Positions 5,801 through 20,800 of a stretch of DNA of 64,000 nucleotides are shown piece after piece (the stretch's first letter is position 1; every line of letters starts with the position of its first letter). The translations under genes and the position numbers were made by a program. Where the stretch lies: the sequence record SRR31156797_886; one strand, 5' to 3'. The notes beneath the pieces were generated by a model. It did not search any database. It saw only the letters and a list, made by a program, of their open reading frames with translations, and was not told the DNA's origin.

Positions 5801-7120
5801 AGCGTCATTATACCAGGTACTGTTTTGCAGGTTAAAAGTATGAATAGGAGCGCCGCGAGTCGTGTTTTCGCGGAGTCTGTGCATGGCCGGCTCAAATTTA
5901 TCTACAGTCATGTCCACCTCTCCGTTGTATTGAGAAGAACCCCATCCCGGAACATCTCCCCCGATGAATATCACATTTACGGTATAATCTTCAACCTGGC
6001 CATAAGCTATATAAGGATTGCAGGGTGATTCAGGATCTTCTTCGGCTATCAGGATAGCACGCATCCTGGTTGGCCCGGCAACCACTGTAGGAACTGTAAT
6101 GGTTGTCGTCAACGTTCCGGCGCCTTCAGTTTGCCCCAGGTCATAGGCTTCACCTTCATCATCAAAATCACAATCAGCATTCCAGTCGAAATACAGCCAG
6201 ATGTTTTCATAATAATACACGGTGGTGCCGCATGACACTGAAACAGTATAAGATTGTCCCATGGTAACATCAGTTGATAAATAGGTAAAATCTTCATATC
6301 CTGCAGTGGTATTTACTGAATTATTTATGGTATTGAAAGTTAAATTACTTATCCATTCTTCAGTAGCATTCTGTGCAGTTGCGCCACAATATGTACACTC
6401 CGGAGCATTGGGATTACCACGGTTATTTGCTTTAACCTCGAACTCATTAGTATTATGAATCCGGCTAATTATATTGACTATTTCGCCGGTTTTTGCATCT
6501 ACATCCACCCAATCTCTGCTGAGAGGTCTGTGGGCATAAATGTCGAAACGATACACCAGCCGCATAGTCTTACCTGATAGATTTCCATTACCTGAAGATA
6601 GGAGAAGCTCACCCTTTGGATAGAAAGTTGCATCCGGGTTGTTCTGTTCACTTTTCAGGAAAGTTTCAGTGTCAGGATCTTCCCACATATAAGCCTCTGC
6701 ATTGATATGCTCAAGGGCAGCGGCCAATGCTGTTTCTTCACTTATGCCAGGTGTGACGGCCATGTCCAGATTATGAATCAGTTGCCCGTTGGCAAACCAA
6801 ACAGCGTCATTCTTTTCATGAAGCACGTATTGTGCTCCGTCGATTTGAATTCCTTTGTAAAATTGATTGTACCGGTGGTGTTTTCCCAATTGATCGGTTG
6901 TAACCTTTTGAATTTCCAGCTGTATGTCATCAGACAAATTAAATGCTTGTCGGTATTCATCTAAAAATATTGAAACCGATGGCTGATTTCCTTCTTCAAA
7001 GCGCATGGATTGTGGGTTTCTTTGATCAAGCAGCCTGCTCTGAGCAGTGAGTAGTACTGGTAAAAAAACCAGCAATATCATATGCAATCTGAAAAACGAA
7101 TGGTAGTGTTTTAGGGTCAT
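2822..7120 (-). CDS. Multidomain M4 (thermolysin-family) metallopeptidase: FTP/PepSY propeptide, GEVED, M4 catalytic domain, accessory domains, dockerin-like C-terminus
   Basis: Motifs NAFWDG, AHELTHG (HExxH), GALNESFSD and GGVHINSG. Propeptide motifs HHRYNQFYKGI and VDVDAKTGEI. GEVED motif YGQVEDYTVNV. Confidence 0.92.
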   Translation of the reverse strand: MTLKHYHSFFRLHMILLVFLPVLLTAQSRLLDQRNPQSMRFEEGNQPSVSIFLDEYRQAFNLSDDIQLEIQKVTTDQLGKHHRYNQFYKGIQIDGAQYVLHEKNDAVWFANGQLIHNLDMAVTPGISEETALAAALEHINAEAYMWEDPDTETFLKSEQNNPDATFYPKGELLLSSGNGNLSGKTMRLVYRFDIYAHRPLSRDWVDVDAKTGEIVNIISRIHNTNEFEVKANNRGNPNAPECTYCGATAQNATEEWISNLTFNTINNSVNTTAGYEDFTYLSTDVTMGQSYTVSVSCGTTVYYYENIWLYFDWNADCDFDDEGEAYDLGQTEGAGTLTTTITVPTVVAGPTRMRAILIAEEDPESPCNPYIAYGQVEDYTVNVIFIGGDVPGWGSSQYNGEVDMTVDKFEPAMHRLRENTTRGAPIHTFNLQNSTWYNDAVDFTATDNWGPWDPVGVSAHWGAEVTYDYFFNSFGRNSLDGQGFPLNSYVHADQNYNNAFWDGERMTYGDGDGINYNPLVCIDIVAHELTHGLTEFTSNLRYYGESGALNESFSDIFGNVVEFSVEGEPGIGTGSWRMGEDMTLVGEGGIRNMENPKEFFDPDTYYGSFWKAVNESFDNGGVHINSGVPNHWFYLLSTGGSGTNDHDTSYNVTGIGWENAASIAYHTNASMLTPYSNFYAARDASIAAAEALFGAGSQGAISTADAWDAVGVYQLPIPENDDCANAIPLSCGDTIIGNTVYATFDADVPFCDTDHTTNGVWYTIVGDGSVIEASMCGGKIYDARMTLYEGNCDELLCVAADDDGCGGYENVSKITWQSTAGTTYYILIHGFENATGEFRLTIRGSDPLNIGLNPSDLSFDLGADGNTTGALSISNNGPACTRNLNWTVYKNEAPPANQFTQGENSEDPFFAYGISPELPTNHLINHNEYHDHETTTVPSNGQYQAPSGPPVLISGSDKENNSPVASVVEPITLTHSLSQELRGVTIACVYSNTIGQYSAGSSALRSFYLPDFGVTGDFNVTEVEVGVRKATSGSGTQPVKVYLYLWNFNNTVTVIDSATYEIPDQQYTMLTLPISTTVPANSRLLAQVASPDGLEGENTFFVAANDGGQSGPSYMYAPDCSNDNYFWDMDYWGVPQVHYVLNVKGFAETTAPWLSISGGAGNTASGASDDVILNIDASGLETGTYTSQLRVNNNSGAGTAFIPVELNVTDALRLDLKVMLEGPFSDGVMVPGLADDLPLVQPYNTAPWNYDGEETLSEYSPDNVDWVLVEIRDAASAPEATADKVIGRQAALVNSSGQIVNVGGNIDLDFLQSVNENLFVVIHHRNHLSILSASALSKSNGLYSYDFTDDEGKALGGALGQKDIGSGIWGMISGDSDANGLVEIGDKTPAWYIQAGSSGYNSSDFNLDGESNNVDKNEFLIPNIGKTSQVPE

Positions 7121-7588: not shown

Positions 7589-7876
7589 TTATATCTCATC
7601 GGTTTCAACGATTTTAGCCAGCAAATCAGCGTAAGGGATTACGAGGTATTTGTTGCCTTCGTATTCCAGTTCTGTACCTGAGAATTTTTTGTAAAAAACA
7701 GTGTCGCCCACTGATATTCCAGGATTTTCAACATTACCCACGGCAACTACTTTTGCCATTTGCGGTTTTTCTTTGGCTGTATCAGGAATGATGATACCGC
7801 CTGCTGTTTTCTGCTCAGTTTTCTCCTCGTTCAGATCGAGGATCACGTTTTGATTTAACGGTTGCAATTCTTTCAT
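7589..7876 (-). CDS. groES: Co-chaperonin GroES (Cpn10)
   Basis: 95 aa with LQPL, mobile loop KTAGGIIIPDTAKEKP, VVAVG and VGDTV..KFSGTE. Confidence 0.93.
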   Translation of the reverse strand: MKELQPLNQNVILDLNEEKTEQKTAGGIIIPDTAKEKPQMAKVVAVGNVENPGISVGDTVFYKKFSGTELEYEGNKYLVIPYADLLAKIVETDEI

Positions 7877-7889
7877 CGTTATGCTATTT

Positions 7890-8465
7890 TTAATTTATGT
7901 TTAACAATTTATTGATTCTTGATTTGTCGAAACCAACGATAATCTCGCCATCAATCTCGGTTTGCGGCACACCCTGTTGCCCGCTTTTCCTTACCAGTTC
8001 TTCAGCCATTGACGGATCCTGCGAGACATCCACATCCGTAAACCTGATTTTGTGTTTGCGCAGGTGTGTTTTCAGGGTGGTGCACCAAGTGCAGGTTGGC
8101 GTTGAATAAACCGTTACACTCGGCTGGCGTGGGCCATCTTCGTCATCAACTGTGTAGGCTGTGCTTTCAAAAAATGAACGGTAAAAATCAGGGTTGTTGC
8201 AGCCTTTCACCACATTTTGATACTGGCCTTTTTCGAAAGCTAAAAGTGTAGGAACGGATTTCACACCATACTTTTCGTGAATATCCCGAACTGATGCCAC
8301 ATCGGCAGTAAATACCCTGATGTCATCATTTTCGACCTGCGAAAGATTATCGATGGCACAATTGCTTGTGGCCGAACCGCTTTTGTAAAGCATGAGGTAT
8401 GACTTGTCGAGCTCCTTAATATTTTCGATCAGTTCGCTGTGAGATAATACTTGTTTAAATTCCAT
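7890..8465 (-). CDS. Thioredoxin-fold / glutaredoxin-like (NrdH-type) fusion protein
   Basis: N-terminal Trx fold (YGVKSVPTLLAF) with no CxxC. C-terminal domain VYSTPTCTWC...GQQGVPQ...IIVGFD. Confidence 0.85.
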   Translation of the reverse strand: MEFKQVLSHSELIENIKELDKSYLMLYKSGSATSNCAIDNLSQVENDDIRVFTADVASVRDIHEKYGVKSVPTLLAFEKGQYQNVVKGCNNPDFYRSFFESTAYTVDDEDGPRQPSVTVYSTPTCTWCTTLKTHLRKHKIRFTDVDVSQDPSMAEELVRKSGQQGVPQTEIDGEIIVGFDKSRINKLLNIN

Positions 8466-8662
8466 TTTGTTGATTCCGTTAAGTGATACTAATGCGATTT
8501 ATTTTTCGCTGCAAAAGTAATTTTCCAAATCATATCTTCGCATTAAAATCATTTAAAATTTGAGGACAGGGTACAATAAAAAAAATGCCAAACAAAGATT
8601 GCTGACATTTTGACAACGATGATTACGTTGAAATGGAACAAGGTAATGGACTGGTCCCCCGA

Positions 8663-9289
8663 TTAATTTAAATATTGCAGCCCCTCGCTTGCCGATTCAT
8701 CATCAGGCCTGATCAGCAATGCCTTTTGGAATAGTACTTCGGCTTCACGCAACTTACCAAGCTTTAATTGTGTCCAGGCAAACATAATCGTACCGTCATA
8801 ATCAAACGGGTAAAGGTTTACCACCTTTTCAAAATACTTAAGGGCGGCTGCATAATCCTCACCGGAATAAAAAATCATTCCCATTCTGTAATTGGCCAGC
8901 GTATTGTTAGGATCGATCTCAAGAATTTTTTCGTACTGTTGCTTAACTATGCCCCAATTACCCAGTGCCGAAAGCGGGTAAACATATCCAAACCTTGCTT
9001 CAACGGCGTAAGGGCTCAACCCGATTGCGCGTTTATAATAAGCGGATGATTCCGTGAAATTTCCGTTTGAATAGTTCAACCAACCAAGCCTTAGGTTTAT
9101 CTCATACGAGTCTTCGGCATAGTGTTCCTTCAATTTTTTGATTGCACCGGCATATTCGCCATCGGCTTCCAGGGCATAACTTGCCTTAAATGCCTCCATC
9201 AAGGGCTTGAAATCCTGCGCCCGGGATGTTGAGACCGTAAGCAACAAAAACAGCAATGCAAATAATCTGAGGTTTTTTATAATTTCCAT
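8663..9289 (-). CDS. Secreted tetratricopeptide-repeat protein
   Basis: Signal peptide followed by several TPR units (LRLGWLNYSNGNFTESSAYYKRAIGLSP; YRMGMIFYSGEDYAAALKYFEKVVNLYP). Overlaps the upstream gene by 13 bp. Confidence 0.88.
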   Translation of the reverse strand: MEIIKNLRLFALLFLLLTVSTSRAQDFKPLMEAFKASYALEADGEYAGAIKKLKEHYAEDSYEINLRLGWLNYSNGNFTESSAYYKRAIGLSPYAVEARFGYVYPLSALGNWGIVKQQYEKILEIDPNNTLANYRMGMIFYSGEDYAAALKYFEKVVNLYPFDYDGTIMFAWTQLKLGKLREAEVLFQKALLIRPDDESASEGLQYLN

Positions 9290-10623
9290 TTTAGTCCTCC
9301 AATTAGCGTAATGTATCCAAAAGTATTATTTAGTTCTTCGGTGGTGTTAAAGTCGGTGTTGTACCAGTATTTTGTAACGCGTTCCATATATCTTCCTCTT
9401 AACGAAAACTCAAGGTGTTTGCTTATATCGTAAATGATATTTCCTTCGATTTTATAGTTTATTTTATCAGAGGTATTATAGATGGTAAAGCTCAACCGCT
9501 CATTATAATCCTTTAGGTTGCCTAATGTAGCCTCTGCTTCCAGCCAAACCTTTGGCAATAATTTTACGCCAATCATTTGGTGGAAAACAAAATCATCTCT
9601 GTTTCGCTGGTTCCATATCCTGAAAACTCCGGTTTCGGTATAAAGGTCAAGATTTCCAAATGGAAAAACATAAATCAACAGACCTGCCTGTTTTGTTTTG
9701 GTACGCGTAAAGTCACCATAAGAAGCCATTCCTTCGACGGCAAACAGGCCCAAATCCTTTCGGATAGAAAGCGAAAAAAGCGATTCCTCTTCAACGGTTT
9801 TGGTGGTATCTGCCAGCAAAACATTCAGGGTGGTATCGTAAAAATCTGTTTGATTCCGAAAGTCGACCCACAGCAAGTGCCAGGCTGCCGTTGCCCTTAT
9901 ACCGGTAGGGATAGCCCACACCAGGTTTCCGTAATATTCATGCTGATGGATTTTTCCTTTGAAAACGGGCCATTCAACACCCAGGTAATTCACCTTTTGC
10001 GAAAAATCAGCAGCTACAAAATTGTAGCCCTGATAGGTTCGGATGGAGGGATGCACACGAAGCCTGAATCCAACATGGGTATAATACAATTGGTCATAGA
10101 GGTAACTCTTGCTGTAAATCGTATCAACATTTTCTACACGGTCCGCCCACCAGTTTTTCAGGTCGTCGTTCAAACCAACACCAGGCCCTGTTTCAAGATA
10201 CACCAGTTCAAACGGGTTTGTTTGGGCGATGCCCATCTTTTTTTTCCTTTCTGCCGAAAGTTCATCCGCAATTCGAACGGCATCATATTCTCTGCCTGAT
10301 AAAGTGTAGCTGTAATACAAATACTCGATGGTTGCTTGTGAAATCGGATTGAGTTGACGGGCATCTTCGAAATAACGAATGGCATTTCGGTAATTTCCTT
10401 GCTCGTACCAGGCAATACCAACCCGCATCTGGATGTAATAATGATCAAGGCCGACTTCAATAGCCTGCTTCCCTAAAACGATCAATTCATCCCACCTGGC
10501 TTCATCATAAAGAGCCAGTGTGATACTATCATACTTTTGGAAATCAACTTTTTCCTGAGCATAGGCAAAATAACCCAAACCAGACAAAATCAAAATCAAA
10601 AACTTCGTTGTTAATCTCTTCAT
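9277..10623 (-). CDS. TPR plus probable outer-membrane beta-barrel protein
   Basis: Signal peptide, N-terminal TPR (RVGIAWYEQGNYRNAIRYFEDARQLNP), amphipathic beta-strands and a barrel-like C-terminus GGLKWKL. Confidence 0.7.
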   Translation of the reverse strand: MKRLTTKFLILILSGLGYFAYAQEKVDFQKYDSITLALYDEARWDELIVLGKQAIEVGLDHYYIQMRVGIAWYEQGNYRNAIRYFEDARQLNPISQATIEYLYYSYTLSGREYDAVRIADELSAERKKKMGIAQTNPFELVYLETGPGVGLNDDLKNWWADRVENVDTIYSKSYLYDQLYYTHVGFRLRVHPSIRTYQGYNFVAADFSQKVNYLGVEWPVFKGKIHQHEYYGNLVWAIPTGIRATAAWHLLWVDFRNQTDFYDTTLNVLLADTTKTVEEESLFSLSIRKDLGLFAVEGMASYGDFTRTKTKQAGLLIYVFPFGNLDLYTETGVFRIWNQRNRDDFVFHQMIGVKLLPKVWLEAEATLGNLKDYNERLSFTIYNTSDKINYKIEGNIIYDISKHLEFSLRGRYMERVTKYWYNTDFNTTEELNNTFGYITLIGGLKWKL

Positions 10624-10624
10624 A

Positions 10625-12826
10625 TTATGATTTGATCTCCTTTGCCACGATTTTCAATTGATCTGAAATAATCTTGAAGTCAAGAATCCGGTCATTCTCG
10701 ATCAGGAGATCGAAATTAAAATTATCACTCCTGTTATTTGAATATTGCAATCGGGCTTCCGATTTCAGGACTATACTGCTTTCGCTCAGGTCATCGGTCA
10801 TATCCACATAAACCATCTCAAAATCTGCACGCATAAAAATATAGAAGGGAGCTATAAAATCCTGGATAATTCGCTGAAAACTATGCCTCAACACATCAAT
10901 CGGAAATTTGTCGCGGACCACCAAATTCGTTTTATAAGCCATCGAAACTTTGTATGCACCCAAATAAAAATAATACAGCAAGGTGTTTTTATCGCCGGCA
11001 AACCGTGTAAAATAAAACAATCGACCATTATTTTTAAACCAGGCTGTAGCTTCCTTCTCCCTGCATTTGAAATAGGTATTGTTATACATATCAGTCAGCA
11101 CTTCCCATTCTTCAATAACAGGTTCTCCCTCATTTATCACATACTCAAAGCTTAAGGTTTGCCCCGGCACAAAATTAAAGGCCTTGTGAAGCGAATCGTT
11201 TTTATTGATATTTAAGACAACCTCCTCCTTAAGTGGCCTGTCGTAGGATTTTAAATTGTAGCCATTGGAAGTTTTCACCAGGTAATCTGAAAGGGCATAA
11301 TCCAACGTTTTAGAACCAATGAATGGATTTTTCTGTATTTGGAAATGAATATGCGGAGTTGGTGACCTGCCTGAATTCCCGACCTTAGCAAGCAGAGTTC
11401 CTTTTTTTACCTCATCATTAACTTTAACTTCAAAGCTGCCATTTTTAAGGTGCGAAATTTTTGAGTAAAGATGTTCGTCATGCTTGATGATGATGGTATT
11501 GCCCCAGTTCTTTTCGAGGTTTACGTCACCAACAGGGTTATCCTCCACACCATCCAGAATTTCCTGAACTACCCCATCACCGGGTGCAATAACAGGTTGG
11601 TTGTAGCAATAATAATCCGATGGCTTTGTTCCGTTTCCCGAATATGATTTCCCATCTTCGTCAAAAATTTCAAAATCCCAGGCATGACGCCAGGCTTCTT
11701 TATGTGTATATTTCCCTTTGTGTGCTTGTGTAACATTCCATTCGCCCCAAAACGGCAGGTTAATCTGGTTGTGACGGGCAGATTCATCAAACCGGCTTTT
11801 GAAATTCTCCTGCGCATACAGGTTTTTTTCCGGTGAATATTGCTGGACGGCAACCAGTTCGGGCCGGCTGAAATTACGCTCCCTGAACTTCAGGGCATAC
11901 ACGAACATCACAACAATGATGTTAAAAGCCAGACTATAAATTGAAAGCTGCAAATTGATAAAGAAAGCAGATGTTGATGTGATGATGATGGAAGTGATTG
12001 GTGTTATCAACAGCACCCACAGAAAGGAATATTTTGAAGGAACCAGGAAAAATCCGCCAATGGCAATGGCAGTGAGGATGTAGTTGAATCCGATATAATC
12101 GTAACTCAATTCGCCAAAATTTGCACCAATAAATAAATAATAAAAGTACGCAGAGAAAAAACCCAGCAATGAGAGCAGGAACGCGATCCGGGAATAGATC
12201 AATAAACCGATGGCAATTAAAAATCCGGCCAGTAAATGGTACTGGAAAAATATTGCCCCTAATGATTGAAAGTAGATAAGAATGCTGTCATGGATCGGGA
12301 GATCATTCATCCAATGGTAGGCCTCAACCAAAAATGTACCACCGTAATCATACATGTCGTTGATCATGTAAAGCCCACGTTCACTCACTTCGAGCGAAGT
12401 AAACTGTCGCGATGCCAGGCTCACCATCCAAATGCCAAATAGAAAAGGCCAGGCCAGATAAGGGAGGCCGTATTTACCAAAATGGTTTTCGAGCCAGATG
12501 GTTACAAAAAGCGTTAATAATGATGCAAAAACCAGTAGAAAAAAAAATGCTATGCCTGGCTGGTAATAAATGCCCAGCCCCAAACCCACCAACAGACTGT
12601 TAAATCCGTAGTATCCCTGGCTTACTTTAAACCTGTTGTAACCCATGAGGATGGCAAGTCCGTTTACTGCAATCACAGAAAGCAAACCAGAAAGGCCGGC
12701 CAGCCAATCGAAAAAAGTTACAAGGAGCAAAATGAGGGCAAAAAACTTATTCTTCGAAAAGAATACCTGGGAATAACTATTCAGGGTTCCTTCGATAAAA
12801 CCGATGATATGCTTTTGGGTGGGCAA
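10625..12826 (-). CDS. Urea transporter family membrane domain fused to an M23 (LytM) metallopeptidase
   Basis: TTG start. Duplicated hydrophobic halves with SQVFF/GAIFFQ and GYYGFN/IGFN motifs. C-terminal HAWDF, VIAPGDG, WGNTIIIKH, SHL and GNSGRSPTPHIHFQ (HxH). Confidence 0.88.
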   Translation of the reverse strand: MPTQKHIIGFIEGTLNSYSQVFFSKNKFFALILLLVTFFDWLAGLSGLLSVIAVNGLAILMGYNRFKVSQGYYGFNSLLVGLGLGIYYQPGIAFFFLLVFASLLTLFVTIWLENHFGKYGLPYLAWPFLFGIWMVSLASRQFTSLEVSERGLYMINDMYDYGGTFLVEAYHWMNDLPIHDSILIYFQSLGAIFFQYHLLAGFLIAIGLLIYSRIAFLLSLLGFFSAYFYYLFIGANFGELSYDYIGFNYILTAIAIGGFFLVPSKYSFLWVLLITPITSIIITSTSAFFINLQLSIYSLAFNIIVVMFVYALKFRERNFSRPELVAVQQYSPEKNLYAQENFKSRFDESARHNQINLPFWGEWNVTQAHKGKYTHKEAWRHAWDFEIFDEDGKSYSGNGTKPSDYYCYNQPVIAPGDGVVQEILDGVEDNPVGDVNLEKNWGNTIIIKHDEHLYSKISHLKNGSFEVKVNDEVKKGTLLAKVGNSGRSPTPHIHFQIQKNPFIGSKTLDYALSDYLVKTSNGYNLKSYDRPLKEEVVLNINKNDSLHKAFNFVPGQTLSFEYVINEGEPVIEEWEVLTDMYNNTYFKCREKEATAWFKNNGRLFYFTRFAGDKNTLLYYFYLGAYKVSMAYKTNLVVRDKFPIDVLRHSFQRIIQDFIAPFYIFMRADFEMVYVDMTDDLSESSIVLKSEARLQYSNNRSDNFNFDLLIENDRILDFKIISDQLKIVAKEIKS

Positions 12827-12914
12827 CGCTATTTAACTTTTATGTTGAACACAGGTTTATTGTTTCCAAAAGTACACATCTGAATGAATCTGTTCAAACA
12901 GGTACTCTACCGGC

Positions 12915-14273
12915 CTACCGGTCAAATTCTTTGAGATGATCGGGTAGTTGTTCCTGGTGCTTAAAAGTTTCCATGTTTTCTGACTCGCGAATAACATGAA
13001 CCTTTCCTTCCGTATCAATCAAAACAATTCTGGGGCGAAGTGTAATAAACTGCATCCACTGGGTCATGTTATAGGCACCCACATGGTGAATTACGAAGTG
13101 ATCGCCTTTGTTGAGCAACGGCAGCAATGCATTGTCGCGAACCACATCAATATTCATACACAGCGGGCCGTATAGTGTGGTTGTTTCTGAAAACTGGGTG
13201 AATTCCTGGGCGGGTGAAATTTTATGGTCATACCAGTATGCTGTGAACATCAGATTTACACCAACGTCAATAATCGTTGTTCGCTTTCCTGATGCCGACC
13301 GCTTATTTGAAATCACGGTTCCCAGCAGGAATCCGGCTTCATCAATCAAAGCCCTGCCGGTTTCAAGAATAAGCAGAGGCAGGTTATCAGGCGAGAATTT
13401 GGCATTGAGCAGTGCGGTTGAAATTGCTTCGGCAAAATCCGCAAAGTCAGGATTTATATCACGACCGGGCAGGTATGAACCTTTCAGTGTATTTTTTGAT
13501 GGAAAACCTCCCCCGAGGTCGATGTACTTGACTTCATGTCCATACTTTTCCTTGAGGCCATTGGCCAAATCGGCCAGTTTTGTTGCCGCTATTCCATAAG
13601 CTTTGGCGCTCAGCATAAAGGTTCCGATATGGCAGTGCAGCCCCACCAGTTCCATTTTGCCGGAGGCCATAATTTTATTCAGTGCATCCCATGCCTGTCC
13701 GTTTTCGTAGTTAAAACCAAACCTGTCCCACAATGGGTAAGTCCCGGTATCCATATTCACCCTGATGGCAACACGTGGCCTCACCTCCATTTTTTCTGTC
13801 AGCCCGATGATGGTATATAATTCATCCAAATGATCAATATGTATGAGCGACTCATTCTTAATGGCCATCTCAAGGTCTTCTACGGTTTTATCAGGGCCGT
13901 TAAAAATGATGCGTTTTCCTTTAACACCATTATTCAGGGCTTTTTTGTATTCGAATCCTGAGACCACCTCGGCCCATGAACCTTCCTGGTGATAGATATT
14001 ACAAACTGCATCGAGGTAATTGGTTTTGTACGACCAGGCAAATTGTACTTTCGGGTATCGGGTTGAAAATGTTTTTACGGCTTTTCGATAAGTATCCCTG
14101 ATTGTTTTTTCCGACAGCACAAATAACGGTGAACCGTGTTCTGCAATCAAATCAGTTACTTTGATACCGTCGATGTTGGTTTTTGGGGAGTTTTCCGGTT
14201 TACTTCCATATTTGTTAGGCATGTCTGATTCCATTCTCTTAATCAGGGGCCTTTCATATCTTTCTTTAGTCAT
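12915..14273 (-). CDS. Fold-type III PLP-dependent enzyme (diaminopimelate/ornithine decarboxylase family), substrate uncertain
   Basis: Motifs SYKTN (PLP lysine), EVVSGFE, IIFNGPDK, HCHIGT, DLGGGF, LETGRAL, GPLCMNID and GAY. Confidence 0.88.
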   Translation of the reverse strand: MTKERYERPLIKRMESDMPNKYGSKPENSPKTNIDGIKVTDLIAEHGSPLFVLSEKTIRDTYRKAVKTFSTRYPKVQFAWSYKTNYLDAVCNIYHQEGSWAEVVSGFEYKKALNNGVKGKRIIFNGPDKTVEDLEMAIKNESLIHIDHLDELYTIIGLTEKMEVRPRVAIRVNMDTGTYPLWDRFGFNYENGQAWDALNKIMASGKMELVGLHCHIGTFMLSAKAYGIAATKLADLANGLKEKYGHEVKYIDLGGGFPSKNTLKGSYLPGRDINPDFADFAEAISTALLNAKFSPDNLPLLILETGRALIDEAGFLLGTVISNKRSASGKRTTIIDVGVNLMFTAYWYDHKISPAQEFTQFSETTTLYGPLCMNIDVVRDNALLPLLNKGDHFVIHHVGAYNMTQWMQFITLRPRIVLIDTEGKVHVIRESENMETFKHQEQLPDHLKEFDR

Positions 14274-14361
14274 ATCTTGTAAGTTTTCAAAGATGAAATC
14301 GAAGTGTTTTTGTTAATCAAGTAAAAAGAGTATTACAATATTAAAGGTTTGGAGCTACGGT

Positions 14362-15408
14362 TTATAATTCTCCAACTGTAGATATTTTCTGGAAATCCTG
14401 CATATCGACTATCATGTCCCAGGCAAACCTGACAAACATTTTCCCAACTGTATAATCACCAAAAGGCTTCACTTTTTCGCCAAGAGCAAGTTTCACCAGT
14501 GCTTCAGGGATATTGTGCCCAACCCCCACCGACAGGTAGATCCAAGCGGGCATTCGCGGATTGATTTCCAAAAGATAAAATTTTCCCTCTTTATCTTTCA
14601 TCAGTTCCAGTTCAAAGCCTCCTTTCCATTTGGTTTGGCTGATGAATTGTTGGGTCAGGTCGATCATCTTTTGGTCGGAAATTGAAATACCACCCCAGGC
14701 TTTGCCTTTTTCAGTGATGTACTGCTTGCGCATGGGTATGGCCGAAATGGTATTGCCCAGGCCATCGCCGAGGCCTGTAACGTTGTACTCCATGCCATGA
14801 ACAAATTCCTGGATGATAATGGGAAAACCCCACTTTGCACTTATTTTGTTAAAATAGGTTTTTACCTGTTCAACGTTATAGGCTACATAAGCATCGTAGT
14901 ACTTTCCTTTTACCAAAACCGGAAAATCAAAATCTTCTTTGATTTTAAAAATATCTCCAACATCACTGATGGGTTTGCTTTTGGGGACCAGAATATCATA
15001 TTTTTCGCCAAATGCGTTCAGGTTCATTTTATGTCTTTCTTCGAACTGTTCCATGGTTGGCAGACACATGTGAATACCTTTTGCCTTTAAATCATCTTCG
15101 AACCTGATAAATGGATACAACTCTGAATCAAAGTTGGGAATTAAAACATCAAGTGATTCCTTTTCATGGATATAATTAAGCCGCTCATAAACCGCATCCA
15201 TACCGGCAGAAGGATATGGAAACTGGTAGGTTTTATCAACCAGGTCGTGCATATAAATCCCCGGTTCAAGCGACTCGTATGCCAAGCCAATGATCCTCAC
15301 GTCAAAACTTTCAGCCTCCCTGAGTGCCCTGATCACCGCAACACCCGGGCCGGGGCTGTCGATGGCATTCAATCCTGATACTGCAATATTCAGTTTTCGC
15401 TTACTCAT
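14362..15408 (-). CDS. ATP-grasp ligase (carbamoyl-phosphate-synthase-like / carboxylate-amine ligase)
   Basis: Motifs FPVLVKG, IIQEFVHGMEY, FELELMK and LLEINPR. Overlaps the PqqD-family gene by 8 bp. Confidence 0.88.
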   Translation of the reverse strand: MSKRKLNIAVSGLNAIDSPGPGVAVIRALREAESFDVRIIGLAYESLEPGIYMHDLVDKTYQFPYPSAGMDAVYERLNYIHEKESLDVLIPNFDSELYPFIRFEDDLKAKGIHMCLPTMEQFEERHKMNLNAFGEKYDILVPKSKPISDVGDIFKIKEDFDFPVLVKGKYYDAYVAYNVEQVKTYFNKISAKWGFPIIIQEFVHGMEYNVTGLGDGLGNTISAIPMRKQYITEKGKAWGGISISDQKMIDLTQQFISQTKWKGGFELELMKDKEGKFYLLEINPRMPAWIYLSVGVGHNIPEALVKLALGEKVKPFGDYTVGKMFVRFAWDMIVDMQDFQKISTVGEL

Positions 15409-15646
15409 TATCGATTAATGAAAAATTACGGAGTAACCCAATAAAATCTTCGGTGTCTTTTTCTAAAGTATTTACATCAATATCATACGAATTGTGCAAC
15501 GCTCCGGTTATCTCCGAAACAGACTTTCCTTCTTTTAGATATTGTAGTATTGTAGCTCCCAATGGGTTTACAGTGTAAGATTCGCCCGTTTCCGGGTTAA
15601 AAATAAAACCCGTGTCGCTAACTGCAATATTATTTTTAATCTTCAT
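15401..15646 (-). CDS. Stand-alone PqqD-family protein (RiPP recognition element, RRE)
   Basis: 81 aa with three beta-strands (IAVSDTGFIFNPETGESYTVN) then three helices (PLGATILQYL / VSEITGALHNSYDID / TLEKDTEDFIGLLRNFSLI), the PqqD pattern. Confidence 0.88.
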   Translation of the reverse strand: MKIKNNIAVSDTGFIFNPETGESYTVNPLGATILQYLKEGKSVSEITGALHNSYDIDVNTLEKDTEDFIGLLRNFSLIDNE

Positions 15647-15660
15647 GGATTTTCTGATTA

Positions 15661-16443
15661 TTATTGAACAACAATTTTCCTGGCTTCAGACCTGTTGTTT
15701 CCTGACTGCAGGTAATAAAAATAAACACCAGCCGGTAGTTGGGCAGTGTTGATCATCAGATCATTGAATTGACGATCGACCTGATAGCTTTCTATTACAT
15801 TTCCATTGGCATCGTGCAGGATGATTTCACCTGATCGGGCGCCATCCGGAAGTTCGAAAGGAACGATGGTATAATCGCGTGCTGGATTTGGAAATGCCGG
15901 ATCTTCAATGGACATAAATTCTTCGCCCTGTCCTGATGAAACCAGTTGGCCGGGTAAGTCGAAAACAACGGTGGTTATGCTATAGGGTGAGGTGCTATAA
16001 TCATAAACATACATCAGCATTTTTGTTTCGTCATCAACGCTGTACACATACACATACTGGCAGCCCTCAACGGTAAGCAGGGAAGTCCCGTCCTCCTTAA
16101 TAATTTTTGCCGAATAGGTATAAAATTGATTGGTTACATCATAGGAGTAATAAATGTAACACAGCGATAGGGTATTATCATCAGTAAACAAATTTTCAGA
16201 AATATACCTGACATCGTACAGGTATTGATCTACGGGGACATCCAGGTCGATTGTCTTCCATAATGAATGATCGGTATTGTAAACCCTGCATTGTTGGGCC
16301 AGAACATCCATTACATAAAACTTATACCCTGAATTTGAGAGATTGGCATAGGTTCCCGAGTGGCCATAATCGGCTTCAAAGTTGATTTGAGCGTATGACA
16401 GTGTTGAAAGCAGCATGAGTGCAGCGAAAAAGGTATTCTTCAT
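15661..16443 (-). CDS. Small T9SS type A cargo protein, Tyr-rich
   Basis: Signal peptide from M at 16443 (MKNTFFAALMLLSTLSYAQ). CTD reads AFPNPA...LHDANGNVI...GVYFYYL...KIVVQ. Ends 14 bp upstream of the PqqD-family gene. Confidence 0.85.
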   Translation of the reverse strand: MKNTFFAALMLLSTLSYAQINFEADYGHSGTYANLSNSGYKFYVMDVLAQQCRVYNTDHSLWKTIDLDVPVDQYLYDVRYISENLFTDDNTLSLCYIYYSYDVTNQFYTYSAKIIKEDGTSLLTVEGCQYVYVYSVDDETKMLMYVYDYSTSPYSITTVVFDLPGQLVSSGQGEEFMSIEDPAFPNPARDYTIVPFELPDGARSGEIILHDANGNVIESYQVDRQFNDLMINTAQLPAGVYFYYLQSGNNRSEARKIVVQ

Positions 16444-16609
16444 TTTGTTAAGGTTTTTGAATGTTAAATAAGTCCCCAATAATACGTTTAAACATAAATT
16501 AAAATGTATAAGATTTTCATAAAAATGTTCAAAATTTTATGATTGCAAAAAAAGGATTTTTTGATGATTTGCTAATAATCCCGGACCATTATCTGAATAA
16601 TATTACCGG

Positions 16610-16642
16610 TGCGCCTGTCCTGGGCCACCCGGGGCGGGCGCA
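16610..16642 (+). repeat. GC-rich 15-bp hairpin
   Basis: TGCGCCTGTCCTGGG-CCA-CCCGGGGCGGGCGCA is fully paired on the + strand, with three G-T wobbles. Confidence 0.7.
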
Positions 16643-16695
16643 ATTACCACCTGCAATGTACCGGCGGTTTTGCTTTCTTTGCTTTCCAACCTCAT

Positions 16696-17808
16696 CTATT
16701 CAATTACAATATTATAGGTTCCGGCTACCAACAACTTTGCTGACGGCAGTTGCGCAGTCAATTCGATATAATTATTGGCTTTACGACCTGTATTCACTTT
16801 TGTCTTCCTGAAATAAAAGGTTGAATTTTCTTCTTTTTCATACATTAATACATAAGGTTCAGCGTCTGATTGGATGACGGCTGATTTAGGAATCGCCAAT
16901 ACCGAATCAACAGCCGTAAAAATATCACCTTCAACAAATTGATTGCTCACCATAATAACACCTTCAGGGTTATCTATTGCCGCAAAACATTCAACTGCCA
17001 TTGACTCGGGCATAATTGTTTTCCCTATCGCATTGATCGTTGCCTGTTGCTTTTGCGTTTTCCTTCCGTTGAAATAAAATTCCACTATTTGTCCGGGTTT
17101 AATTTTATGAATATCCTTCTCAAAAACAGAGAGCCTTAATTGAAAAGAATTGTTGTCGATAATTTCTACTATGGTTTGCTGCGGATCAACATATTGCCCT
17201 ATTGATGCAGTAATACTTGAAATAAAGCCATTTATGGGTGAATTAATGGGATAAGATGAATAAAATTCACCTTTCTTAATTTTTGCTACATCAAGGCCCA
17301 TACTTTCGAATTTGGCTCTCAATGCTTTATGCTTAGCATTTTCGACATAATACTTACTTTCGGCAGCAATAAAATCTTTTTGTGTAGCAATATTTTCATT
17401 ATACAATTCCTTGGTTCTGAGATAATCGCTTTTCAGTTTCGAAAGAATAGCTGATGATTCTGAGAAATCTTTTTGCAATTCGATAAACCGATGGCCGGAT
17501 ATTTCAAATAATAAAGAACCCCGGCGAACCATTTGGGCCGGTTTACAGTGGATGTTTTCAATTATTCCCGGCAGTGGTAAACTAATTTGCGCGTGTCCGC
17601 CAACAGCCGGGACAATTGCACCGGTAAAATGAACCTTATCGGCAAACGGATACAATTCAGGCGCTCCAATTTTCATTTTTTCCGAATCAAACTGTGCTTT
17701 TGATATTTCTATAAAACCGGAATCGGTATCGGCAGTTTGTTCAGGTAGGTTATTGCATGATATCAACACCACACCAAAAACAAAAACTATAATTATTTTT
17801 ATGTTCAT
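16696..17808 (-). CDS. czcB: RND efflux periplasmic adaptor (CzcB/CusB-like) lipoprotein
   Basis: Lipobox VLISC. Membrane-fusion-protein motifs ISLPLPGII and INSPINGFISSI...GQYV. Lies directly after the czcA-like gene. Confidence 0.85.
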   Translation of the reverse strand: MNIKIIIVFVFGVVLISCNNLPEQTADTDSGFIEISKAQFDSEKMKIGAPELYPFADKVHFTGAIVPAVGGHAQISLPLPGIIENIHCKPAQMVRRGSLLFEISGHRFIELQKDFSESSAILSKLKSDYLRTKELYNENIATQKDFIAAESKYYVENAKHKALRAKFESMGLDVAKIKKGEFYSSYPINSPINGFISSITASIGQYVDPQQTIVEIIDNNSFQLRLSVFEKDIHKIKPGQIVEFYFNGRKTQKQQATINAIGKTIMPESMAVECFAAIDNPEGVIMVSNQFVEGDIFTAVDSVLAIPKSAVIQSDAEPYVLMYEKEENSTFYFRKTKVNTGRKANNYIELTAQLPSAKLLVAGTYNIVIE

Positions 17809-17819
17809 ACTGCTTGCGT

Positions 17820-20800
17820 TTATTTTGAAAAATATTTTATTTCAGATGCTTTTCGATTGTATTTCAATACATTATTTAAATGTTCGAGTTGAATTTGAAT
17901 GGCTGTTTCGTAACTGCTTACAAACTGGAAAAAGTTGATTTCCCCCAATTCATAAGTTTTTATTGCTGTTTCCATGATCTCGTTCATCAGGGGCTCTCCC
18001 GACGAATAATAATTATCAAGCAATGCTTTAAACTTAAGCTGCTCGCTCAGCAACTGGCTTAATTGATTGTTAATGATACTTATTTGGTTTGCAACAGATA
18101 ATTGTTTGGCGTTTGCCGAAAGTTTTGCGGCATTTATTCTTGCTTTTGAGTTCCCATAAAACAATGGTAAGGCAACACCCACCTGGAATCCGTGATAGTA
18201 CTCACTATTCTGGTATGGGTTAGATCCCAAAAAATAATTGGCAGATAAATCAGGTAGCATCCTGTTTTTTTCGACACGAATGAGGGAATTAAAATAATCA
18301 GCCTCATTTAGTAATACATCAAAAACGGGCAACGAATTGGGTATTTCCTTTACTTCGGGCAATGGCTCAATAGCTGCAGGAACAATAAAATCACCCTCGT
18401 AGTTCATCAGCACCTTCAATCGTTTATACGCGTTTTCAACATCAATATTCATTGCGTTTAACTGTATTGAAGCCTGATTTTTCTTTGCTTTTATGTTCAT
18501 TACTTCAAGGTGGCTGATATCCCCTTTTTCGGCTCTTTTTTCCGCATTGGCAGTTAGCTCATTGTAAAGGCTGTCGAGTGTTTGAAATAGTTTTTGCTTG
18601 CTCTGGAGGCTTTGATAGTGGAAATAGGCATAAGAAACATCTTTCGATAAGGTGTTTTTATGATTATTCAACATTGCTTCGGCCAGGGTTACCTGAATTT
18701 GTTTGGCTTTATTTTTTACCGAATAAAAAGTTGGAAAACTAAAGCTTTGCTCCACCCCCCAAACCCTTAGGGGATAACCATTTTCGGCTATATTGTTTTG
18801 ATCATAGTCATAACTAAAAAGCGTTTTACCGGGTGCAAAAGCAGTCTTTTTTAATACTTTGCTCTCCTCAACATTCAACACATAAGCAGCAATTTGCTTA
18901 TTGTTTTGCAGGGCGGTATCAATGGCATCGTTCAATTTCATTTCGGGACGTTGCCCAAAAGCAAAAATGGTTGGGATACCAATAAGCAGCAGCGTAATAA
19001 CCGTTTTGGAACGCACAAAGCGCAACGGGAAAAAGCGGATACCTTTTACATTATAAAATATTTCGTAGAGCAGCGGCAGGGCGATCATGGTTAGCAATGT
19101 AGAAGTAATGAGCCCGCCAATTACCACGGTAGCAAGGGGTCGTTGCACTTCGGCTCCGGCACCTGCTGAAATAGCCATGGGCAAAAAACCCATGGCATCG
19201 GTTGTAGCTGTAAGCAATACCGGTCGCAACCGGTTTTTGGTTCCGGTGAGTATCAAATCACGCATGTTTGTCATTCCCTGGCGCTGCAACTCCTTAAAAT
19301 GTTCAATGAGCACTATGCCGTTGAGCACCGCAATACCAAAAAGTGCAATAAAGCCAACCCCTGCCGAAACGCTAAAAGGCATTCCCCTGATCCAAAGGAG
19401 AAAAACACCACCTACCGTGGCTAAGGGTATAGCGATAAAAATCATAAGGGCATCTTTGAATGATTTAAAGGCAAAATGCAGAAAAATAAAAATCAACAGT
19501 AAGGCTACCGGAACAGCGTACATTAAACGATTGGTTGCACTTTGCAAATTTTCGAACTGGCCGCCGTATTCAATATAATTGCCAGCTTTTAATTGTATGT
19601 TCTCATCAATTAAGTCTTGAATATCCCGGATAACAGATTCCAGGTCGCGGTTGCGCACATTAATACTCACTACCACCCTGCGGCGCGCATTATCGTGCGA
19701 AATTTTGGCCGGACCTTTTGTATATTCAATTTCAGCCAGTTCACTTAAAGGAATCATTCGGCCGCTGGAAATCGGTACCTGAAGTTGGCGAAGGTCATCA
19801 ATATCCGTTCGGTTTTGTTTGCTGAGCCGCATCACCAAATCGAAGCGTTTTTCGCCCTCAAAAATTACACCGGCTTTTGCTCCGCCAAATGCCGCAGACA
19901 AGGTGGTATTCAATGTTTGAATATCCAGGCCGTAATAGGCTATTTTGCTTCGGTTGTAGTTCACCCTAATTTGGGGCAAACCTTCGGTTTTTTCCACAAT
20001 CACGTCGCTTGCTCCCGGCACATCGGCAATAAGGCTTTCTATTTCACGCGCTTTTTGATTGATATAATCCAGGTCTTCTCCAAAAATTTTAACCGCAATG
20101 TCAGCTCGCACACCGGTAATTAATTCGTTGAAGCGCATTTCGATGGGTTGTGTAAACTCATATTCCACGCCGGGGATAACTGAAAGGGCTTCCTTAAATC
20201 TTTCGGCCAGTGCTTCTTTGCTGTTTGCCGATGTCCAGGTATCCTTGGGTTTTAGCTTAATAATCATATCAATTTCTTCCATCGACATGGGGTCGGTGGG
20301 TACCTCGGCAGCACCAATGCGGCAAACAATCTGTTCAACTTCATCGGGAAAATTATCTAATAAAATGTTTTCCATTTGAGTTGACATTTCCACCGTTTTA
20401 GAAAGGGATGTGCCGGTTTTTAATACCGGTTGTATTACAAAATCGCCTTCATCGAGTGTGGGAACGAATTCGCCGCCAATGCGCGTAAAAACAAAACCCG
20501 TAGCGATCAGAGAAAAAATGGCTGCCCCAAGCACTATCCGCTTATGATCACACGCCCACTTAATCACCGGATAGTACGACTGATAAACTTTGTCCATAAG
20601 CCAATCGGAAATCGTGCGCTTTTTTGATTTGGACGGTTTTAAAAAAAGTGATGATGCAACCGGTATCCAGGTAAGCCCCACGATCATGGCACCAATGATG
20701 GCAAAAGAAAACGACAAAGCCATGGGTTGAAACATTTTACCTTCAACGCCACTTAGCGCAAGAATGGGAATGAAAACAATAAGAATGATCACCTGCCCAA

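Follow-up and report, generated by a model that had tools for sequence, protein, structure and literature searches.

Six co-oriented genes on the minus strand of a 64,000-nt stretch of DNA from sequence record SRR31156797_886 (the window, here always the whole stretch) form a conserved cassette. They encode a PqqD-type RRE (recognition element for RiPPs, peptides that are ribosomally synthesized and then modified post-translationally), an ATP-grasp ligase, a pyridoxal phosphate (PLP) decarboxylase, a fusion of a urea transporter (UT) channel with an M23 peptidase, a tetratricopeptide repeat (TPR) protein with an outer-membrane beta-barrel, and a second TPR protein. The decarboxylase begins with a leader-like tag of the kind found on lasso peptide precursors, and tag and RRE occur together in all loci with room for both. 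The RRE probably binds this tag, a contact that would dock the enzyme to its partners. A seventh gene at the head of the group, for a cargo protein of the type IX secretion system (T9SS), is a lineage-specific neighbor, a local add-on outside the conserved cassette.

The original prediction treated all seven genes, at 8663-16443, as a single pathway. The list of minus-strand open reading frames (ORFs) agrees exactly with that layout (Table 1; the first ORF, 15661-16479, extends beyond the start of the cargo gene). The junctions are, in gene order, a 14-nt gap, an 8-nt overlap, two 88-nt gaps, a 1-nt gap and a 13-nt overlap. Pfam also agrees with the predicted domain content of each of the seven proteins, giving in order a T9SS sorting domain, PqqD, ATPgrasp_Ter, an Orn/DAP/Arg-type decarboxylase, UT plus Peptidase_M23, TPR, and TPR. 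An NCBIfam scan reached no named equivalog for the core proteins.

Conservation of the cassette

The ATP-grasp protein was searched against a collection with one genome per species; 538 stretches matched and 496 of them encode a relative, which places the cassette in hundreds of species. The best 80 of the 496 were kept as genome loci (L001-L080). Neighbors were counted by tblastn of the window proteins, at those loci that have enough DNA on the relevant side. Among these best 80, the closest are metagenome-assembled genomes of Lentimicrobiaceae (91% identity), and others belong to Bacteroidales, Flavobacteriales, Chitinophagales and Ignavibacteria. The RRE lies directly upstream of the ATP-grasp gene in 78/78 genome loci and the decarboxylase directly downstream in 70/70; the UT-M23 gene follows downstream in 58/60. 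All six core genes stand in order in 48 of 51 loci, and L030 lacks the barrel protein. This arrangement is beyond chance, and the gene-neighborhood check thus bears out the predicted conserved unit for six of its genes.

A metagenome scan, for which the query was a profile of apparently tail-less decarboxylases (A5), returned 80 contig loci of 31-73% GC. Two of these, L093 and L157, have no recognizable start region and were dropped, leaving 78 decarboxylases. The RRE and ATP-grasp genes are upstream of the decarboxylase in 64/64 metagenome loci with room, and UT-M23 is downstream in 50/51 and upstream in L154. A homologous TPR protein of ~210 aa is encoded on the same strand in 45 metagenome loci; the TPR-barrel protein is confined to Bacteroidota-like loci of this set. 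Distant lineages therefore have the four-gene core in common, in many cases together with the small TPR protein, and the six-gene form is the Bacteroidota/Ignavibacteria version. When the decarboxylase profile was searched against 1.84 billion cluster representatives, 12,712 matched at E <= 1e-3 and 1,506 at E <= 1e-30, not all of which need be of the cassette type. Some relatives have 1.5-3.1 kb inserted between the decarboxylase and UT-M23 genes (L017:12411-15549; L026:12540-14094).

A lasso-type RRE, probably without a precursor peptide

A profile of the RRE built from 25 sequences was searched against solved proteins. The best matches were the lasso B1 proteins TbiB1 (E 2.8e-13), TfuB1 (1.5e-8) and PbaB1 (2.6e-4), followed by LppB (0.06), which belongs to linear polyphosphorylated peptides, and PqqD proper (0.15). 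Judged by these matches, the RRE is closest to lasso B1 proteins. It scores under the cut-offs of both specialized models, with 38.3 bits against 70 for the lasso PqqD model NF033530 and 20.7 against 46 for the PqqD model TIGR03859 of pyrroloquinoline quinone (PQQ) synthesis. This low PqqD equivalog score, together with the absence of any radical SAM or pqq gene from the seven genes and their immediate flanks (Pfam/NCBIfam), supports the earlier statement that the locus does not make PQQ.

According to the part of PMC13381572 that was available, discrete lasso RREs read the motif [Y/W]xxPx[L/V/I/F/A], with YxxP essential for binding, and D70 of LppB is a tyrosine-binding residue equivalent to Q79 of PbaB1. 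In lasso leaders, YxxPxL runs from position -17 to -12, according to the available part of PMC10368454. TbiB1 and TfuB1 were both solved with YxxPxL leaders. In the alignments, TbiB1, TfuB1 and LppB each have an Asp opposite Asp64 of the cassette RRE, the Trp-reading PbaB1 has its Gln there, and Asp64 is thus a putative Tyr-binding residue.

Delivery of a separate peptide by the RRE, as originally proposed, is most likely not what happens here; the probable ligand is the decarboxylase's own leader-like tag. The genome and metagenome sets share no small-protein family among flanking ORFs of at least 70 aa within 3 kb, a search that misses shorter peptides. The only same-strand ORF of at least 20 aa wholly within a gap of the window cassette is a 22-aa ORF with a TTG start.

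A leader-like tag on the decarboxylase

The tag occupies the first 33 residues of the decarboxylase, and the region that aligns to FslC and LysA begins at residue 34, leaving the tag outside. In the window protein the motif is followed by K21-Y-G23, 15-17 residues past Y6; the general form of the tag has K-F-G here. The window decarboxylase was aligned with 71 genome-locus homologues of at least 430 aa (72 sequences, Bacteroidota/Ignavibacteria). E7, R8, P9, K21 and G23 are invariant in 72/72, position 6 holds Tyr (62 sequences) or Phe (10), and position 11 holds Ile (63), Leu (8) or Val (1). The motif [YWF]xxPx[ILVM] is present in 78/78 metagenome decarboxylases. Counted from its aromatic residue, the +15 position of this set is K in 66 of 78 (A in 7, P in 4, Q in 1) and the +17 position is always small (G in 58, A in 17, S in 3).

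More distant homologues narrow down what is constant. A pattern search of the best 150 of the 12,712 profile relatives found the tag in 27; many of the others are incomplete or begin only with the catalytic body. P0009, one of the representatives, is an 871-aa ATP-grasp::decarboxylase fusion whose linker carries YVRPSI without K-F-G. The Lys is absent also from several distant representatives and from this fusion, the small +17 residue is not kept in some distant representatives or in the fusion, and none of the tag's acidic residues is universal. The aromatic-Pro-aliphatic motif alone recurs in every tagged homologue, and across lineages of 31-73% GC the remainder of the extension is variable. 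A Lys that is not universal and the lack of a universal acidic residue argue against fixed side-chain attachment and favor a recognition role.

Compared with a lasso precursor, the tag has the leader features, Y6-x-x-P9-x-I11 with G23 at +17, but on a 452-aa enzyme. The acidic ring acceptor at lasso core residues 7-9 has no conserved counterpart: residue 29 is Glu in 25 of 72 sequences and residues 29-31 are not conserved as Asp/Glu.

Covariation and predicted contact of RRE and tag

Mutual information with the first tag residue was computed for 136 distinct RRE/tag pairs, and RRE position 64, the putative Tyr-binding position, gave the highest value. Asp is found there in 112 of 114 pairs with a Tyr tag and 3/3 with a Trp tag, and in 0/19 with a Phe tag (Tyr 12, Ser 6, Asn 1). 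This pattern fits the loss of a hydrogen-bond partner.

The RRE was also modeled together with decarboxylase residues 1-45, in three runs in which the supplied alignments were unused. The interface score ipSAE came out at 0.43 each time, and the highest-scoring of 3 controls reached 0.02. At least 90% of contacts are the same from run to run, and the partner pLDDT (predicted local distance difference test) is at least 51. The ipSAE mark used is reached by 51/78 solved complexes and 2/108 mismatched pairs; passes at an ipSAE of 0.60 or less account for only 5/78 solved complexes and for all 4 of the mismatches that pass (of 180).

Table 1. Cassette features, with the neighboring T9SS gene, in the order of transcription; coordinates are those of the window
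Feature	Coordinates	Strand	Basis
T9SS cargo protein	15661..16443	-	signal peptide, N-domain, type A C-terminal sorting domain
Stand-alone PqqD-fold RRE, lasso B1 type, 81 aa	15401..15646	-	Pfam PqqD 50.2 bits (cut-off 23.4)
ATP-grasp ligase	14362..15408	-	ATPgrasp_Ter 47.1 bits (cut-off 29.1); overlaps RRE gene by 8 nt
Fold-III PLP decarboxylase, FslC-like, 452 aa	12915..14273	-	Orn_Arg_deC_N 110 bits, Orn_DAP_Arg_deC 44.3 bits
Leader-like N-terminal tag, decarboxylase residues 1-33	14175..14273	-	Y6-E-R-P9-L-I11 at 14241-14258
UT-M23 fusion, 733 aa	10625..12826	-	Pfam UT 197.7 bits and Peptidase_M23 60.4 bits in one protein
UT channel domain, residues 12-312	11891..12793	-	Pfam UT 197.7 bits
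M23 metallopeptidase domain, ~residues 352-530	11237..11773	-	AlphaFold2 model and Pfam
C-terminal beta-rich domain of fusion, ~residues 547-733	10628..11188	-	confidently modeled (AlphaFold2)
TPR-barrel outer-membrane protein	9277..10623	-	signal peptide, TPR 28-130, 14-stranded beta-barrel
Secreted TPR protein, 208 aa	8663..9289	-	Pfam TPR matches

The enzymes of the cassette

The best solved match of the decarboxylase is the N-citrylornithine decarboxylase FslC (7kh2, E 5.7e-54), followed by LysA (5e-42) and BtrK (3e-24). Its scores lie below the cut-offs of the dedicated models, with 225.1 bits against 500 for the FslC model NF041039 and 214 against 297.9 for the LysA model TIGR01048. The motif GPLCMNID resembles GPSCMQHD of FslC and not GGLCESSD of Methanocaldococcus jannaschii LysA. 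The Glu of the LysA motif contacts the far amino group of the substrate; C-M-N in place of C-E-S suggests that the far end of the substrate is acylated in the cassette enzyme. The earlier description of a LysA-fold PLP enzyme is right as to a fold-III PLP decarboxylase; the LysA type does not hold, the protein being closer to FslC, which acts on a conjugate.

The NCBIfam matches of the ATP-grasp protein are all sub-threshold. The nearest solved proteins found with its profile are the large chain of carbamoyl-phosphate synthetase (E 2.9e-15) and 2pn1 (3.4e-14); these and the biotin carboxylases, also among its solved relatives, are all distant.

The UT-M23 fusion and the TPR proteins

Both internal repeats of the UT domain can be aligned to the Desulfovibrio UT structures 3k3f and 3me1. 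The domain scores 117.9 bits against a cut-off of 274.6 for the urea transporter model TIGR03441, and it has altered pore signatures: where the family reads LPxLSxPF and IYSLPFN, this window reads LAWPF and SLAFN, and Ser (Ala in this window) stands where the aligned Desulfovibrio UT has Thr.

Residues 330-733 of the fusion were modeled by AlphaFold2 with a pLDDT of 91.4 and contain an M23 fold. A VIA-align comparison of the M23 model gave Z 14.4 for the LytM domain of DipM (root-mean-square deviation, rmsd, 5.5; 136 aligned) and Z 14.1 for Csd1-Csd2 (rmsd 3.6; 143 aligned). H375, D384, H459, H492 and H494 are invariant in 25/25 sequences. The domain probably lies on the cytoplasmic side, together with the RRE and the tag, because no hydrophobic segment (maximum 19-residue hydropathy 0.88) and no signal peptide follow residue 330, the linker after the UT domain (KFRERNFSR) is basic, and the topology of UT proteins leads to the same side. 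It is therefore unlikely to cut cell-wall cross-links in the periplasm, the activity that the original prediction cited for M23 domains. The C-terminal beta-rich domain resembles barrels and LolA/lipovitellin-like folds in a generic way only (Z 7-9.7), and an ESM Atlas search with it gave no usable match.

The TPR-barrel protein was modeled by AlphaFold2 with a pLDDT of 89.5. Its Foldseek matches include FadL/TodX barrels (TMq ~0.45) and also BcsC, and no Pfam or NCBIfam family covers the barrel region. With these proteins, the reach first claimed for the system, from cytoplasmic enzymes through an inner-membrane channel to outer-membrane and periplasmic TPR proteins, stands.

A docking model and its alternatives

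In the model that we prefer, the lasso-B1-type RRE would bind the [Y/F/W]xxPx[I/L/V] tag at the N-terminus of the FslC-like decarboxylase and thereby dock this enzyme to the translationally coupled ATP-grasp ligase and/or to the cytoplasmic M23 domain of the UT channel. The ligase would form an amide with an amino acid held via its side chain, the decarboxylase would strip the free alpha-carboxylate, the M23 domain would hydrolyze an amide at the mouth of the channel, and a small polar amine or amide would exit through the UT-like pore. In Bacteroidota and Ignavibacteria, the TPR-barrel outer-membrane protein and the periplasmic TPR protein would extend the route across the envelope. The docking explanation as a whole has a slightly better than even chance of being correct. 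The sequence of the chemical steps and the kind of product are tentative details that may well turn out differently. The broader idea, that a leader/RRE pair of the RiPP type has found new use in wiring an enzyme, either for complex assembly at the channel or so that its N-terminus is handed to the M23 domain, stands at about even odds. The 8-nt overlap of the RRE and ligase genes and the ligase::decarboxylase fusions fit docking.

Several points weigh against this model. A FastTree phylogeny of 133 decarboxylase bodies (11 pairs with bodies shorter than 350 aa were excluded) holds 110 Tyr+Asp, 18 Phe+non-Asp, 0 Phe+Asp, 2 Tyr+non-Asp and 3 Trp+Asp pairs, and each trait needs only 3-4 changes on trees (3 on the FastTree). 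A sign test on independent pairs has 3-5 pairs to work with and a median p of 1, and the approximately unbiased (AU) test does not reject a single Phe-tag clade (p 0.3; quick IQ-TREE, 61 of 133 rows). With so few changes and a single Phe clade not rejected, the covariation of D64 and Tyr may be a single evolutionary event. The complex score is weak support, and since like complexes are solved, the pass may reflect likeness to these only. As a control, tail-less decarboxylases without an RRE neighbor were sought in the metagenome scan, which returned only tagged cassette-type loci. The ligation step is a guess, because the ATP-grasp protein has no close characterized relative. UT-M23 is missing beside the decarboxylase in 2/60 genome loci (L028, L046), the first M23 motif is H375-x8-D384 and not the canonical HxxxD, and the placement of the M23 domain leans on the general topology of UT proteins, in which both termini are cytoplasmic.

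The tag could instead be a genuine leader: as a lasso B1 protein passes a leader on to the B2 protease, the RRE would offer the N-terminus of the decarboxylase to the M23 domain, and cleavage at K-F|G would mature or release the enzyme. The Gly exposed in this way might in turn serve the ATP-grasp enzyme as a substrate. The register speaks for such processing. In the 72-sequence alignment the invariant G23 lies exactly 17 residues after Y6, as lasso core residue 1 does from Tyr(-17) in the available part of PMC10368454. The +17 residue of the metagenome tags is likewise always small, and M23 is the sole peptidase in the cassette, with invariant catalytic His residues. Cleavage beside Gly is, moreover, common among lysostaphin-type M23 enzymes. 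A lasso-type ring is unlikely with no conserved acidic acceptor 7-9 residues after G23, and in the fusion P0009 the tag is an internal linker without K-F-G. On these two grounds docking is preferred and processing is rather unlikely. An extension that is merely structural, on an enzyme of an ordinary soluble ligase-then-decarboxylase pathway like that of FslA/FslC for rhizoferrin, is also a poor prospect, and a somewhat worse one. The PqqD-like protein would then have another role, for example as a chaperone for the ATP-grasp protein or for an unseen peptide. FslC, the closest characterized relative, does act on a free conjugate, and the weak complex score and possible single-event covariation are what such a pathway would allow. 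Against it, the motif of the extension is of precisely the class that the RRE's nearest solved relatives recognize, it is the most widely conserved part of the extension across the 31-73% GC lineages, and the RRE accompanies the tag in 64/64 metagenome and 78/78 genome loci with room.

It is improbable that the tag serves as a template, with an amino acid ligated to K21, decarboxylated in cis and cut off by the M23 domain, so that the enzyme's own tail is the scaffold. Small-molecule synthesis on a carrier or scaffold (BtrI/J/K, LysW, scaffold peptides) works by the same logic. K21 is invariant in the Bacteroidota/Ignavibacteria alignment, BtrK, which acts on carrier-bound Glu, is among the solved relatives of the decarboxylase, and the available part of PMC13622209 describes small molecules that are assembled on ribosomal scaffold peptides with RREs. 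The Lys, however, is absent from 12/78 metagenome homologues as well as from the distant representatives and the fusion already mentioned, neither it nor any acidic residue of the tag is universal, and an amide to the Lys epsilon-amine would consume the carboxylate of the substrate. Hardest to credit is a classical RiPP cluster with an overlooked precursor, either a small unannotated ORF or the T9SS cargo protein. A stand-alone RRE usually implies a peptide substrate, and 14 nt separate the end of the T9SS gene from the RRE gene. A T9SS homologue is nevertheless found at few of the loci (see below), the flanking ORFs share no small-protein family at the sizes searched, and the gaps of 1-88 nt in the window enclose on the same strand nothing of 20 aa or more beyond the 22-aa TTG ORF.

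Relation to known systems

The solved RREs nearest to the cassette RRE (TbiB1-TbiA, 5v1v; TfuB1/FusB1-FusA, 6jx3; PbaB1, 9x90; LppB, 9x8z) share with it the ligand motif, here on a putative ligand, and the conserved Tyr-binding Asp. Lasso clusters also resemble the cassette in having a peptidase and an ATP-dependent amide-forming enzyme. They differ in that the motif of the cassette is on a 452-aa PLP enzyme and not on a short precursor, the peptidase is an M23 domain fused to a channel, and the ligase is of the ATP-grasp type; none of the seven proteins has a B2 transglutaminase-type protease or an asparagine-synthetase-like cyclase domain (Pfam/NCBIfam). With graspetides in mind, no conserved small ORF of at least 70 aa was found, and the best matches of the ATP-grasp protein are ATPgrasp_Ter and families like carbamoyl-phosphate synthetase.

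The FslA/FslC (FigA/FigC) route to rhizoferrin has the same logic of ligation followed by decarboxylation, there of conjugated ornithine, and FslC shares the C-M-(N/Q) motif. The cassette, by contrast, has an ATP-grasp ligase and no IucA/IucC-type synthetase of the NRPS-independent siderophore class (NIS); FslC has no RRE partner, and the match to it starts only after the tag. Butirosin BtrI/BtrJ/BtrK likewise combine a small protein (there a carrier), an ATP-grasp enzyme and a fold-III decarboxylase. The small protein of the cassette differs from the BtrI and LysW carriers in its PqqD fold and in a C-terminus that is not conserved, which make a carrier role unlikely. Among 79 homologues the last residue of the RRE is E, G, A, D, N, K or others, and a LysW-like carrier, in which an amino acid is held on a conserved C-terminal Glu of a small protein, was rejected on this basis.

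The UT domain keeps both internal repeats of the urea transporters dvUT and UT-B; it differs from them in its sub-equivalog score and altered pore signatures. A UT-M23 protein is listed as a domain architecture, with no function or gene context, in the available part of PMC12998343. BcsC, PgaA and Slam-type exporters are similar to the TPR-barrel protein in that a periplasmic TPR region is fused to an outer-membrane barrel, and they differ in that the cassette barrel has 14 strands and only generic barrel matches. A full-text literature search, with subscription-only papers outside its reach, found no paper describing the cassette, and the accessible portions of PMC12710340 and PMC8939145 do not mention the gene set. 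As far as found, the cassette is thus undescribed, and the earlier claim that it matches no characterized pathway holds within that search.

If the RRE reads a tag on an enzyme, this would be, as far as found, the first case of leader-RRE recognition on a metabolic enzyme and not on a peptide substrate. RRE-based genome mining would then need a new category for RREs without precursor peptides, and leader-RRE pairs could count as natural docking modules. The cassette would represent a widespread, multi-phylum pathway for an exported amine or amide. The combination of a UT-type channel with a cytoplasmic peptidase suggests an unrecognized export route for a small nitrogen compound, which could be relevant to the envelope physiology or nitrogen handling of Bacteroidota, common inhabitants of sediments, lakes and guts.

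The T9SS gene

An ATG at 16443, inside the ORF 15661-16479, begins a protein with the signal-peptide-like start MKNTFFAALMLL... and a C-terminal sorting domain (PF18962, 43.3 bits, cut-off 27; TIGR04183, 42.2 bits, cut-off 23), as is characteristic of type A cargo of the T9SS. The N-domain had no ESM Atlas match at or above 0.9 (best 0.88). A homologue is present upstream of the RRE in only 13/71 genome loci with room, which takes this protein out of the conserved set, contrary to its first assignment. An AraC-type regulator takes the same position in 31 other loci, with RodA and PBP2 further upstream in 15-16 of these 31. Because these loci are close kin, the AraC/RodA/PBP2 arrangement is read as lineage synteny.

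Expression, promoters and flanking genes

One DNA run contains the entire stretch and may be where it comes from, and three metatranscriptome runs contain 6-11% of the sampled words of the stretch. Contigs from the metatranscriptome runs are ~93-99% alike to it, hence from a close relative, and cover parts of all seven genes. Contig X4 15237-15555 spans the RRE/ATP-grasp junction, X7 9180-9467 spans the barrel/TPR junction, and X4 12855-13152 holds the end of the decarboxylase gene and most of an 88-nt gap; other stretches, for example 10712-11767 and 15992-16500, are uncovered. These contigs are a weak hint that the cassette genes are expressed, since RNA-library contigs can contain DNA and cannot prove a single transcript.

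A scan for sigma-70 promoters and terminators gave no excess over chance (36 vs 29.7 expected) and is silent on operon limits. The same applies to TAnnTTTG, the -7 promoter consensus of Bacteroidota, which is not enriched in the window (67 vs 66 expected). One match to it, at 12867-12874 on the minus strand, falls in an 88-nt gap ~40 nt ahead of the UT-M23 start, where it marks a possible internal promoter. The sole strong terminator-like hairpin (7401-7371) is beyond GroES, and an Rfam scan of 8000-17000 gave zero matches at E <= 0.1.

The group is flanked upstream by genes for a resistance-nodulation-division (RND) adaptor and pump and downstream by those for a glutaredoxin-thioredoxin fusion and GroES. 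The downstream fusion gene (7890-8465, minus strand) lies 197 nt from the cassette and encodes 191 aa, thioredoxin-like in the N-terminal half and a glutaredoxin of the YruB type in the C-terminal half. GroES (7589-7876) is next, with no adjacent GroEL, and the glutaredoxin and GroES pair adjoins the cassette in the closest relatives too (L002, L003). A single ORF of 1447 aa (17820-22163, minus strand) encodes a complete RND pump (ACR_tran, residues 5-1036) followed by an outer-membrane efflux protein domain (OEP) in two stretches starting at residue 1077. Such a fusion of inner- and outer-membrane pump parts is unusual; homologues of ~1440 aa are encoded in 7 related loci (e.g. L009:379-4704). 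Further downstream, 2822-7120 on the minus strand encodes a secreted thermolysin-type (M4) metallopeptidase of 1432 aa with an FTP propeptide and a GEVED domain.

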